From assembly GCA_017398545.1 (NCBI GenBank), contig JAFQFT010000021.1, forward strand, positions 2,094 through 66,093: a stretch of 64,000 nucleotides of DNA. Direction: 5' to 3'. The notes under the pieces were generated by a model. The model saw only the letters and a list, made by a program, of their open reading frames with translations, was not told where the DNA came from and did no database searches. This DNA is from Bacilli bacterium (GTDB taxonomy: Bacteria; Bacillota_I; Bacilli_A; ML615J-28; CAG-313). The translations under genes and the position numbers were made by a program. Numbering within the stretch: the stretch's first letter is position 1; the number at the start of each line of letters is the position of its first letter. Positions 11,148 through 14,422 of this stretch are shown piece after piece.

Positions 11148-11498
11148 TTAATTCTTATTTATAATCCTAAACTTAAAATAATAATCCGTTTGCGTATTCA
11201 AAGTAGTTCTACCATAATAATATTTAACTACTTCATTTTCTTTAATTAAAAGAACTTCTCCATCATTTTCCCAGAGTTTTTTACAAGGTATATTAAGTGT
11301 TACAACAATCAATCCATCAATTTCTTCTATTTTTTCAATAAAAGACTTATTCTCTTCATGAAAAGGAAGATTTAAATACTCTCCTACTTTTAATTTCACC
11401 TCATAACTACCAAAAGAAGAATCCATTTGTGGCATCCCCTCTAAATCAAAGATTGCATGAAATTCATAATATAAAACATATTCATCAATATTTTTCAT
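11148..11498 (-). CDS. Hypothetical protein (116 aa)
   Basis: Clean ORF with GGAGG RBS (aggaggaatgcattATG). No recognisable motif. Confidence 0.4.
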   Translation of the reverse strand: MKNIDEYVLYYEFHAIFDLEGMPQMDSSFGSYEVKLKVGEYLNLPFHEENKSFIEKIEEIDGLIVVTLNIPCKKLWENDGEVLLIKENEVVKYYYGRTTLNTQTDYYFKFRIINKN

Positions 11499-11560: not shown

Positions 11561-11593
11561 CAAAAAAGATAGATTAAATAAACTAATCTATCT
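11561..11593 (-). terminator. Rho-independent terminator (ancestral guaA terminator)
   Basis: 10-bp stem AGATAGATTA/TAATCTATCT followed on the minus strand by TTTTTTG. Lies directly after the guaA 3' remnant. Confidence 0.65.
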
Positions 11594-11597
11594 ATTT

Positions 11598-11713
11598 TAT
11601 TTCTATTCAAATTCTATTGTTGCAGGTAGTTTAGAAGTGCAATCTAATAGTACTCTATTAACACCTTTTGCTTCATTAACAATTCTTCTTGAAATAATGT
11701 CTAATACATCATA
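11598..11713 (-). pseudogene. Orphan duplicate of the last ~37 codons + stop of guaA (direct repeat copy A)
   Basis: 116 nt match 12876-12991 (the real guaA 3' end) with only 2 mismatches. There is no upstream guaA body, so it is non-functional. Confidence 0.85.
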
Positions 11714-11788
11714 TTGTATTCAAATTCAATTATTGAAATTTTAAAAATTACTATTAAAATATTAGGTAATATTTTTCGATATAAAACA

Positions 11789-11830
11789 GGCCCACCATGG
11801 TACGCTTATATCAGAGGCGCGGTGGGATCT
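11789..11830 (-). ncRNA. 42-nt GC-rich hairpin element, copy A (downstream of abiF)
   Basis: Plus-strand sequence is GGCCCACCATGGTACGCTTATATCAGAGGCGCGGTGGGATCT, identical to 12761-12802. It has a CCCACC/GGTGGG stem plus an inner CGC/GCG helix. On the minus strand it is followed by a U-rich tract, so it may also terminate abiF. Confidence 0.55.
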
Positions 11831-11857
11831 GTCATTATATATTATGTACACATATGA

Positions 11858-12739
11858 TTATTTAATACTATTTAAAATATTTTTCCAATTTTTTTCAAAG
11901 CCAATTTGGGTTAAATCAACACTTGAGTATTTATTAAATAACAAGTCTAAATCATTTATAATCTTATTTTTTTGACTACTATTTTTAATTAATTTAATCA
12001 TGATAAAAACATATATAAATAATTTATGATTACTATTAGATACATTGATATTGTTTTGTGTAAGCATTTTTTTATCATTATTAGAAATTTTAGGAGCAAG
12101 TTCAAATTCTTTTCCATATATCCTGCTTAAATGTGCACAAGAATTTCTTAAATTAGACAAAACATATAGATAATTCTTTAAATAATTTCTATTTATATCT
12201 AAATAATTTTTGCAAACAGCATCTTTACACGAGTTCATTAAATTAGAATACATCATTGATAAATTTCCAAATGATAAAACTTCTACTAAAACCCATATAG
12301 GTATATCCCTCCCATTAAAATGCTTTATAAAAGGTTCTTTAGAATACTTTCTAGTAATACTATCATTAATTTCTATTTGCAAATCGTTAAATCTATTTAC
12401 ATCTAAAAAATTATTTACGTCTAAGTAACATGTTGGTCCAAAAGTTAAAGACAAATTTAAAGCGATTTGTGTTTTAATTAAAATCTCAATATAATTTAAA
12501 AAACTATTAATTAATCCTCTTAATTCGCAATCAAAGTTATAAATTATAGATATCTCCTCAAATGTGGTAGTTTCGTTAAAAACATCATTCTTTGAAAATA
12601 ATTTTAAATATCCTGAAAATTTATAATAATTTACTTGATTTAAAAATTCTTTTGCCATTTCCAAATCAGTAATCTCTAATCCTCTATCAATCAATATTTG
12701 AACCTGTTCTTCTATTGTTTTTGGATCCTTCATTAACAT
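11858..12739 (-). CDS. abiF: Abi_2 (AbiD/AbiF-like) abortive-infection HEPN-domain protein
   Basis: The N-terminus KTIEEQVQILIDRGLEI...AKEFLNQVNYYKFSGYLKLF is the characteristic Abi_2 family signature. It carries the HEPN-type R-x4-H motif RNSCAH. A GGGGGA RBS lies upstream. Confidence 0.85.
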   Translation of the reverse strand: MLMKDPKTIEEQVQILIDRGLEITDLEMAKEFLNQVNYYKFSGYLKLFSKNDVFNETTTFEEISIIYNFDCELRGLINSFLNYIEILIKTQIALNLSLTFGPTCYLDVNNFLDVNRFNDLQIEINDSITRKYSKEPFIKHFNGRDIPIWVLVEVLSFGNLSMMYSNLMNSCKDAVCKNYLDINRNYLKNYLYVLSNLRNSCAHLSRIYGKEFELAPKISNNDKKMLTQNNINVSNSNHKLFIYVFIMIKLIKNSSQKNKIINDLDLLFNKYSSVDLTQIGFEKNWKNILNSIK

Positions 12740-12760
12740 ATTTCCCCCTATGAATAAAAA

Positions 12761-12802
12761 GGCCCACCATGGTACGCTTATATCAGAGGCGCGGTGGGAT
12801 CT
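12761..12802 (-). ncRNA. 42-nt GC-rich hairpin element, copy B (5' leader of abiF); candidate abiF-associated structured RNA
   Basis: Identical to 11789-11830. It sits between a consensus promoter and the abiF RBS. On the minus strand the hairpin is followed by CUUUUUAUU and then AGGGGGA-ATG. Confidence 0.55.
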
Positions 12803-12811
12803 ATTGTAAAA

Positions 12812-12840
12812 ATTATATCATTATATTATAATTAATTCAA
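12812..12840 (-). promoter_or_regulatory. Sigma-70-type promoter of the abiF cassette
   Basis: Minus strand reads TTGAAT (12835-12840), 17-nt spacer, TATAAT (12812-12817). The predicted start is a few nt before hairpin copy B. Confidence 0.6.
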
Positions 12841-12880
12841 TTAAAATGGTAATTTTTTTACATAACTAATAAAAATATTT

Positions 12881-14422
12881 CTATTCAAATTCTATTGTTG
12901 CAGGTGGTTTAGAAGTGCAATCTAATAGTACTCTATTAACACCTTTTACTTCATTAACAATTCTTCTTGAAATAATGTCTAATACATCATAAGGAATTCT
13001 AGCCCAGTCAGCTGTCATAAAGTCAGTTGTAGTTACAGCACGAAGTGCTATTGCGTAGTCGTATGTTCTTTCATCACCCATTACACCAACGCTTTGCATA
13101 TTTGTAAGTGCTGCAAAATATTGACCAAGAGTTTTATCAATACCAGCTTTAGCAATTTCTTCACGATAGATATAGTCAGCATCTTGAACAATTCTAACTT
13201 TTTCCGCTGTTACTTCACCAATAATTCTAATACCAAGGCCTGGTCCTGGGAATGGTTGACGGAATACTAAGTATTCTGGAATTCCAAGTTCTAAACCGAC
13301 TTTCCTTACTTCATCTTTAAATAAAAGTCTTAAAGGTTCAATAATTTCTTTAAAATCAACAACCGATGGAAGACCACCTACATTATGATGTGATTTAATT
13401 GTAGCACTTTTACCAAGACCTGATTCAATAACGTCTGGATAAATTGTACCTTGAACTAAAAAGTCAACTTTACCAATTTTCTTAGCAACTTCTTCAAACA
13501 CTCGTATAAATTCTGTACCAATAATTTTACGTTTTGCTTCTGGATCAGTAACACCTTTAAGTTTACTGTAAAATCTTTCTTGTGCATTTACTCTTACAAA
13601 GTTTAGGTTATAATTTCCATCTTTACCAAATACAGCTTCTACTTCGTCACCTTCATTTTTACGAAGTAAACCATGGTCAACAAATACACATGTAAGATTA
13701 TTACCAACAGCCTTTGATAATAGTACAGCTGCAACACTAGAGTCAACTCCACCAGATAATGCACAAAGTACTTTACCACTACCAACACGGTCTTTAATTT
13801 CCTTGATTGTCTTTTCTGCAAAATCAGCCATTTTCCAGTCACCTGAACATTTACAAATATTTTTAACAAAGTTAGAAAGCATCTTCATACCTTCAACTGT
13901 ATGAGCAACTTCTGGATGGAACTGTACAGCATATAAATTTTTATCTTTATTTTCCATTGCCGCAACAGGACAATCTTTAGAATATGCAGTAACATTAAAT
14001 CCATTTGGTGCTTCTTTTATCAAGTCAGTATGACTCATCCAACAAATTGTTTCTTTTGATACATTATCAAAAAGTAACGAATTATTATCTACAATAATAG
14101 GAGTTTTACCGTATTCTGATGTTTCAGCATGTTCTACACATCCACCTAAAAGATGTGCCATAAGTTGTGATCCATAACAAATACCAAGAATAGGAATATT
14201 TAAATCAAAGATTTCTTTATCACAAAGTGGAGAATTTTCTCCATATACGCTAGCAGGACCACCTGTAAAAATAATACCTTTAGGATTTAATTCCTTAATT
14301 TTTTCGATTGATAAATTATATGGATGAACTTCGCAGTAAACATTACATTCTCTTACTCGACGTGCGATAAGTTGATTATATTGTCCACCAAAGTCTAATA
14401 CTAATACAAGTTCATTTTTCAT
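12881..14422 (-). CDS. guaA: GMP synthase (glutamine-hydrolysing)
   Basis: GATase motifs ([20 protein letters not shown]), ATP-PPase P-loop SGGVDSSV, and canonical C-terminus PPATIEFE. Confidence 0.95.

Follow-up and report, generated by a model that had tools for sequence, protein, structure and literature searches.

In a window of 64,000 nt from contig JAFQFT010000021.1, part of a metagenome-assembled genome (MAG) of a Bacilli bacterium (assembly G000; 1.83 Mb in 76 contigs, 88% complete), a cassette built around the toxin gene abiF sits at the stop codon of guaA, the GMP synthase gene, and the last 116 nt of the guaA end recur on its far side. This is a genuine chromosomal insertion that has kept guaA intact. 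The comparisons described below suggest that the host's own recombination, and not an integrase, put the cassette there and later moved it. We propose, with about even confidence, that an old insertion at the guaA stop was followed by a homology-driven insertion-duplication, and that the long repeat left behind now serves as a recombination substrate. Throughout, handles beginning with G denote the genomes compared and those beginning with L the loci or contigs compared.

The genes of the region are all on the minus strand, and we describe the locus in that direction (Table 1). The last gene in a row of purine and folate genes is guaA, which ends in a TAG stop codon at 12881-12883 within the proximal repeat copy (R1). 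BLAST aligns R1 with the distal copy (R2) over 116 nt with 2 mismatches. A direct-repeat search of the region returned a single family of 124 nt at 96% identity (11598-11721 and 12876-12999), with an 8/11 partial match on the 5' side of R1 and R2 prolonging the similarity by 8-11 nt. We found no third copy of the repeat (R) in the 76-contig assembly, where the other best BLAST matches are at most 19 nt long. Beyond R2 come the terminator at 11561-11593, a conserved open reading frame (ORF) of 116 aa, here called ORF116, and homologues of addB and addA. A scan for intrinsic terminators found nothing in the region, the native guaA terminator having too few G-C pairs for the scan rule; we call it because the same element follows guaA directly in the relatives G006 and G009. 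ORF116 serves as a marker of the native locus, since its homologues (61-95% identity) follow guaA wherever upstream sequence is covered (10 loci, four homologues); two contigs, L128 and L135, begin too near ORF116 to show the preceding gene. An earlier model-made reading of the window, hereafter the original prediction, had described this architecture correctly: the guaA end duplicated with two mismatches (12876-12991 and 11598-11713, now seen to be unique in the assembly), the original terminator after the distal copy, and a promoter with the abiF cassette after the copy attached to guaA.

That the duplication is real was worth establishing, because a fragmented MAG could join two strains into a chimera or string an episome into the chromosomal sequence, and because four contigs from other samples (L052, L053, L038 and L135) break inside R. 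Those breaks fall exactly at the branch points forced on k=31 graphs when both copies are present. At least eight metagenome assemblies, independent of one another and drawn from several studies, contain the complete path from guaA through R1, abiF and R2 to ORF116, and the assemblers (MEGAHIT, SPAdes-type and Logan) agree on it across samples. The Logan contig L038, from another sequencing run, has the same arrangement at 99.2% identity, and copy-specific single-nucleotide polymorphisms (SNPs) connect R1 with the insert and R2 with the terminator. Because at least eight independent assemblies carry strain-level SNPs inside both repeats, the artefact that the original prediction had itself named as a hazard is excluded; we consider it extremely improbable.

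Empty sites, which the original prediction had proposed to look for, were found in relatives. The clearest is G006, a sister species of the same genus, in which guaA (95% identical to that of the window at the DNA level) runs straight into the native terminator. The flanks are 97-98% identical, and the matches to the two window flanks overlap by 124 nt at its single R. Empty sites also occur in G009, G005 and L125. A survey of 49 genomes of the family, and of 106 of the order with G000 counted in, showed a further copy of the guaA tail linked to the gene in G000 alone. A decayed piece of GMP_synt_C, interrupted by 6 stops, lies in G014:C32.

Two sister lineages show that the site has a longer history. 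In L122, an NCBI MAG whose guaA is 91% identical to that of the window, and in L123/L124, two assemblies with 89.6% identity, the guaA stop is directly followed by a colinear spacer that is 81% identical to the left spacer of the window, and then by one abiF hairpin; abiF itself, the second hairpin and R2 are all missing. From the window to L122, identity is 81% in the spacer and 83% in the native intergenic region. Independent insertions, which would leave the spacer more diverged than the intergenic region, were rejected on these values. Since the spacer has diverged about as far as the native sequence, the left junction probably has a common origin with that of L122/L123 and is as old as the lineage split. 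As judged from these relatives, a 116-bp copy need not accompany this cassette at guaA. What remains in them (L122:4750-4910 and L123:4712-4880) is a toxin-less promoter, hairpin and U-run right after guaA, which could be an orphan antitoxin RNA gene or simply a new guaA terminator.

Between the insert and R2 stands r', a third and shorter copy of the guaA end, which the original prediction had not noted, just as it had not noted the hairpin repeat around abiF. It matches the last 22 nt of guaA (r) at 19 of 22 positions, and a search allowing up to 3 mismatches found 3 sites in the window where 0.01 would be expected by chance. At the equivalent place in L122, about 37 nt past the hairpin, stands a relic of the guaA end of about 10 nt (TAATAGAAGT), and then the native terminator. 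We regard r' as a candidate relic of a primary short target duplication or of an att core. The position of this short, older-looking copy inside the long repeat points to a two-step history.

In the first step, an old primary insertion would have left the short r/r' duplication of 22 nt together with the left junction, which is also found in the sister lineages, where the promoter and one hairpin are all that is left. In the second, as the anatomy of the repeats suggests, an illegitimate joint would have linked the end of r' to a point 116 nt before the guaA end, at the 8/11 microhomology, alongside a homologous exchange in the guaA tail. Joint and exchange together would yield exactly the observed order of guaA (R1), cassette, r', R2 and terminator. 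Such an event would amount to an insertion-duplication, or Campbell-type integration, of a unit of about 1.28 kb made of guaA tail and cassette; it would create the 116-bp direct repeat and would need no integrase. Possible routes include Campbell integration of a circularised tail-plus-cassette molecule, homology-facilitated illegitimate recombination, and unequal exchange followed by loss of one copy. Later, gene conversion may have acted between R1 and R2, and the unit appears to have passed between lineages whose flanks have diverged, the breakpoints falling inside R1 and R2. A precise loop-out by recombination between R1 and R2, restoring a clean empty site, is probable as well, and would explain why the closest sister, G006, is empty despite the older-looking junction.

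Variation among strains points to the repeats as the places where exchange occurs. At offsets 14-15 of R1 (12977/12976) the window type has CA, and four assemblies have TG, as does G006; R2 has CA at these offsets in all lineages of the species. The four L050-type assemblies show 24 differences from the window upstream of 12976 and are identical to it between 12975 and 10913, a distribution that sets a mosaic boundary inside R1. A second comparison involves strain S, represented by contigs L038 and L135, both from run SRR27608073. It has the whole structure, r' included, and differs from the window at 8 of 1249 sites (0.64%) between 12916 and 11668, against 21 of 542 (3.9%) in the flanks (Fisher p = 3e-6). 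Over the 4.5 kb downstream it is 94.1% identical to the window and 96.4% identical to G006. Its R1 carries the host alleles T,T at offsets 63 and 74 (12928/12917), and its R2 carries donor-like C,C at the same offsets and CA at offsets 14-15. This reciprocal arrangement of alleles is the one expected if a single crossover had fallen within the final ~40 nt of R. That breakpoints lie within R1 and R2 is as expected for homologous, Campbell-type recombination, and the assembly encodes recA and a ComEC homologue. The two positions at which R2 departs from R1 in the window (11670 and 11628) change residues that are otherwise invariant, and both are polymorphic: the first change is absent from L038/L135 and the second from L057. 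This polymorphism fits decay of a non-coding relic combined with conversion.

A simpler account is that the structure is the scar of a one-off capture, by break repair or homology-facilitated illegitimate recombination, that has since been inherited vertically and reshuffled by ordinary recombination, the repeat having no role in mobility. Every genome sampled from the species has the insert, and the L050-type mosaic stays free of SNPs for at least 2 kb downstream, as is typical of ordinary recombination tracts. The cassette is also found in many unrelated contexts without repeats, and only one of the six other cassette loci compared has a flanking repeat (L063; 43 nt, 79%). We nevertheless find an inert scar improbable. 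In strain S the low divergence is limited to about one repeat unit and has its two boundaries within R1 and R2, two independent comparisons set a breakpoint within the 116 nt of R1, and the closest sister G006 is perfectly clean although the insertion appears older than the split from L122/L123.

If the repeat is instead an active substrate, it might act as a portable homology arm. The ~1.28-kb unit would loop out as a circle through R1 and R2 and re-enter related chromosomes by RecA-dependent Campbell integration, using as its target the conserved tail of guaA, an essential gene. We put this extension forward only tentatively.

The alternative that most resembles familiar biology is that the 116-bp repeats are true attL and attR sites, and that the cassette is the last remnant of an island, or a hitch-hiker like the cis-mobilizable elements (CIMEs), moved by a guaA-specific tyrosine integrase that a parent element provides in trans. 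The original prediction rightly described the guaA 3' end as an integration hotspot in Firmicutes, as Tn5801 and the integrative and conjugative element (ICE) ICE_SmiB6_guaA document, and this end is a proven target of tyrosine integrases (PMC4844618, PMC4701971). In addition, r' resembles an att core or accretion scar, the strain S crossover maps to the last ~40 nt of R, a member of the same cassette family in another species (L039) lies beside tyrosine-integrase fragments and tRNA genes, and a stray guaA tail is present in G093, on a contig other than that of its guaA. The last of these (G093:C50; L059:40-243) is a free-standing 3' fragment of 66 codons, about 80% identical to the genome's own guaA tail, which lies at a contig end beside a sigma-70-like gene and a 1917-aa ORF and may be a mobile element's mimic of the guaA tail.

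Several observations make this alternative rather unlikely. The 1154 nt that follow R1 are wholly accounted for by the cassette and hold no recombinase or fragment of one; abiF is their only minus-strand ORF of at least 60 aa, which bears out the original prediction of a single-gene cargo with no integrase. The assembly encodes one tyrosine recombinase (on C9), five serine recombinases (three on C4 and one each on C21 and C6) and one rve transposase, none of them linked to guaA. It contains, at 88% completeness, no cognate integrase near guaA, no integrase remnant and no attP-like copy of R. The integrase with a matching att core that the original prediction suggested seeking was thus not found in this incomplete assembly, and neither was a third copy of R. 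No other element using guaA-tail sequence adjoins guaA in 105 related genomes. As for a parent element, a phage collection held no match to the unit, and IMG/VR held no guaA-tail or abiF match, only solo hairpins. Reported direct repeats measure 11 bp for Tn5801 and 12-54 bp for streptococcal site-specific tyrosine-integrase ICEs (PMC4844618, PMC4701971). The 116-bp repeat, twice the longest of these, is therefore atypical as an att repeat, whereas r/r' at 22 nt (19/22) lies inside the range and is typical. Finally, L122 and L123 have the same junction without the long repeat, and the L050-type breakpoint lies at the opposite end of R from that of strain S. Size, the missing integrase, the L122/L123 junction, r' and the breakpoints inside the repeats all run counter to the original attL/attR interpretation of the 116-bp repeat. 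For the older primary insertion, a decayed island or mobilisation in trans is possible.

Some points weigh against our preferred history of insertion followed by homology-driven duplication. The primary insertion could be the work of an integrase, and the strain S breakpoint would look no different if an integrase had a fixed core within the final ~40 nt of R. The linkage of L038 to L135 comes from graph logic within a single run (a shared starting 30-mer, with no third branch seen). R2 might once have been present in L122 and then lost, rather than absent throughout. Because all sampled genomes of the species carry the insert, current mobility of the unit is only a candidate property.

The cargo is a complete AbiF module, consisting of a promoter, a hairpin, the Abi_2/HEPN gene and a second hairpin. 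The promoter at 12840-12812, identified by a promoter scan, has a -35 element TTGAAT, 17-nt spacing and a TG-extended -10 element TATAAT (TTGAAT-17-TGnTATAAT). Other abiF cassettes have a homologous promoter, and matches to the left spacer in other genomes are generic AT-rich promoters. The upstream hairpin with its U-run, besides being a candidate antitoxin RNA, probably also ends transcription reading through from guaA. AbiF was called as a 291-aa protein in other assemblies, and an exact-protein look-up matched this form, as well as neighbouring proteins, and returned no match for the 293-aa form. The protein aligns over its full length with PbAbiF (PDB 8vz6; E 1e-29), its HEPN motif RNSCAH lying over the catalytic RNSCCH, and thus has the Rx4H motif of Abi_2 HEPN proteins. 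AbiF with such an RNA forms a type III-like toxin/RNA-antitoxin system, an abortive-infection module (PMC12373285; PMC12737573), and from its sequence the window cassette is expected to act as an addictive module of this kind.

Table 1. Features of the guaA-abiF locus, in order of transcription
Feature	Position	Strand	Basis or remark
guaA, GMP synthase, 513 aa, intact	12881-14422	minus	Pfam GATase 2.5e-48, GMP_synt_C 9.7e-43
R1, proximal 116-nt repeat (guaA last 36 codons + TAG + 5 nt)	12876-12991	minus	host-type alleles
Left spacer, 73 nt, holds the cassette promoter	12803-12875	minus	promoter scan; 81% identical spacer in L122/L123
Upstream abiF-RNA hairpin + U-run, 47 nt, GC-rich, candidate antitoxin RNA	12756-12802	minus	RF03085, 23.5 bits
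abiF, Abi_2/HEPN toxin, 293 aa from first ATG	11858-12739	minus	Pfam PF07751 4.4e-43
Downstream abiF-RNA hairpin	11784-11830	minus	43-nt core identical to upstream copy in window lineage
Right spacer, 48 nt	11736-11783	minus	no match elsewhere in the genome
r', copy (19/22) of the last 22 nt of guaA, abuts start of R2	11714-11735	minus	degenerate
R2, distal 116-nt guaA-tail copy, non-coding relic	11598-11713	minus	11670 T>C, 11628 C>T, nonsynonymous
Native guaA terminator, hairpin + T-run	11561-11593	minus	directly after guaA in G006, G009; after relic in L122
ORF116, conserved 116-aa ORF	11148-11498	minus	no Pfam match; native downstream neighbour, locus marker

The two hairpins form a GC-rich 47-nt direct repeat that brackets abiF (12756-12802 and 11784-11830). 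Each scores 23.5 bits against the Rfam abiF RNA model RF03085, under its gathering score of 37. Sixteen distinct hairpin copies from related loci share the same two-tier fold, with one compensatory pair (CG in 7, UA in 6). The layout of hairpin, abiF and hairpin, with a spacing of 972 or 973 nt, is kept in six other loci (L021, L039, L062, L063, L064 and L095) that represent five distinct contexts, L095 repeating the motifs and spacing of L039. In all of these the upstream-type and downstream-type hairpins are distinct from each other, and in the window they are identical, which indicates that conversion between repeats about 1 kb apart operates here. None of the other cassette loci adjoins guaA or has the window spacers.

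Among the six loci compared, flanking duplications are likewise not general for the cassette. The one found, in L063 (2-44 and 1183-1225), is a terminator-like hairpin whose left copy is cut by the contig end; its repeat-to-hairpin distances resemble those of the window, and we regard it as a weak case. L105 and L106 match the L062 locus except for the loss of exactly 972 nt, and they retain the promoter with a single hybrid hairpin. As read from these sequences, abiF was lost through recombination between the hairpin repeats, which removed the putative toxin and left a solo candidate antitoxin. A second, degraded abiF locus lies in G000 itself about 3 kb past the window end (C18:69100-69500; L025:1280-1700), and comprises a promoter, an abiF hairpin of divergent sequence (24.7 bits) and a shortened Abi_2 ORF, missing its N-terminal half. 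In a widespread gut species the same cassette stands after tRNA genes, a Fic gene and two tyrosine-integrase fragments (L039:5331-8876), and this locus looks like a decayed island. The AbiF of that species, P0012, is indexed in 105 collection blocks, and a homologous-protein search lists 79 contigs. Short units ('ATGAAACATTT...') in up to four copies occur just 3' of the downstream hairpin in L064:2169-2432, L063:1150-1180, L062 and L021, and not in the window. A pattern scan of genome contigs returned mostly chance matches in GC-rich genomes. Solo abiF-type hairpins with their own promoter and U-run, and no abiF nearby, were seen in L096 and L097 and on two IMG/VR predicted viral contigs of 51-56 kb, L108 and L109 (7900-7990), whose neighbouring ORFs mostly have no PHROG matches. 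By analogy with pseudo-ToxI, the hairpins on viral contigs may be phage-borne antitoxin decoys against AbiF.

The closest published parallel is the recombinase-less 'insertion with long target duplication' of restriction-modification complexes (Nobusato et al. 2000; Furuta, Abe & Kobayashi 2010, PMC2853133), with duplications of 46-420 bp, mostly in naturally competent species. Its authors proposed a cycle of insertion, repeat-mediated amplification and release (PMC2853133). Like those units, the guaA cassette is a small addiction-type defence unit of less than 20 kb with no mobility gene, and is flanked by direct repeats longer than 30 bp (here 116) that align to a single copy in the empty relative G006; the repeat occurs nowhere else in the genome and extends over the 3' end of the gene upstream. 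The locus differs in its cargo, which is AbiF with RNA hairpins and not a restriction-modification system, and so falls outside the original definition. It differs as well in the shorter and older target-end relic inside the long repeat, in the allelic series of the sister lineages (empty, solo hairpin, full cassette with repeat) and in the breakpoints inside the repeats as evidence of exchange between lineages. Cargo apart, the locus fits membership of this known and mechanistically unexplained class.

Other systems share part of the anatomy. Elements at guaA (Tn5801-like islands, ICE_SmiB6_guaA and the CIMEs derived from them by loss of the integrase) also target the extreme 3' end of the gene, leave it intact and have direct repeats of the exact gene end, and r/r' falls within their size range. 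The integrative elements differ in having a tyrosine integrase and repeats of 11-54 bp, against 116 bp and no integrase in cis or detected in trans here, and the 105 relatives hold no other element at the site. Insertion-duplication of the Campbell type, in which circular DNA carries a short chromosomal fragment, is used for gene disruption in naturally transformable Gram-positive bacteria. As in that procedure, homology stands as a direct repeat on both sides, crossovers are limited to the homology and precise loss occurs by the reverse reaction; the laboratory method differs in that a natural circle of tail and cassette is only proposed here. Among AbiF systems, PbAbiF-AbiFr (PDB 8VZ6) and C. 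difficile AbiF-RCd22 (PMC12373285) likewise pair an Abi_2/HEPN protein bearing Rx4H with a leader abiF RNA hairpin, which stands behind its own promoter and is followed by a U-run. RCd22 has two tandem motifs upstream of the gene (PMC12373285), and published systems have the RNA only upstream, unlike the window subfamily with one hairpin upstream and one downstream, 972 nt apart, and with RNAs that score below the Rfam threshold.

The movement of small defence and toxin-antitoxin cassettes without a recombinase is a long-standing loose end, and insertion with long target duplication still has no mechanism 25 years after its description. At a single site, the guaA locus shows a natural series of unusual completeness, from empty, through promoter and solo hairpin, to full cassette with a 116-bp repeat. 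Given this series and the breakpoints inside the repeats, a RecA/Campbell model is directly testable with a 1.3-kb construct. The repeat-gene-repeat layouts, the solo hairpins and the hairpin-mediated loss of the gene bear on how such loci evolve, and the proposal that AbiF and its RNA are the ancestor of Cas13 adds to their interest. If the portable-arm model is true, a toxin-antitoxin defence cassette of the Cas13 ancestor family would be able to spread across species boundaries, and to be lost precisely, without any recombinase of its own.

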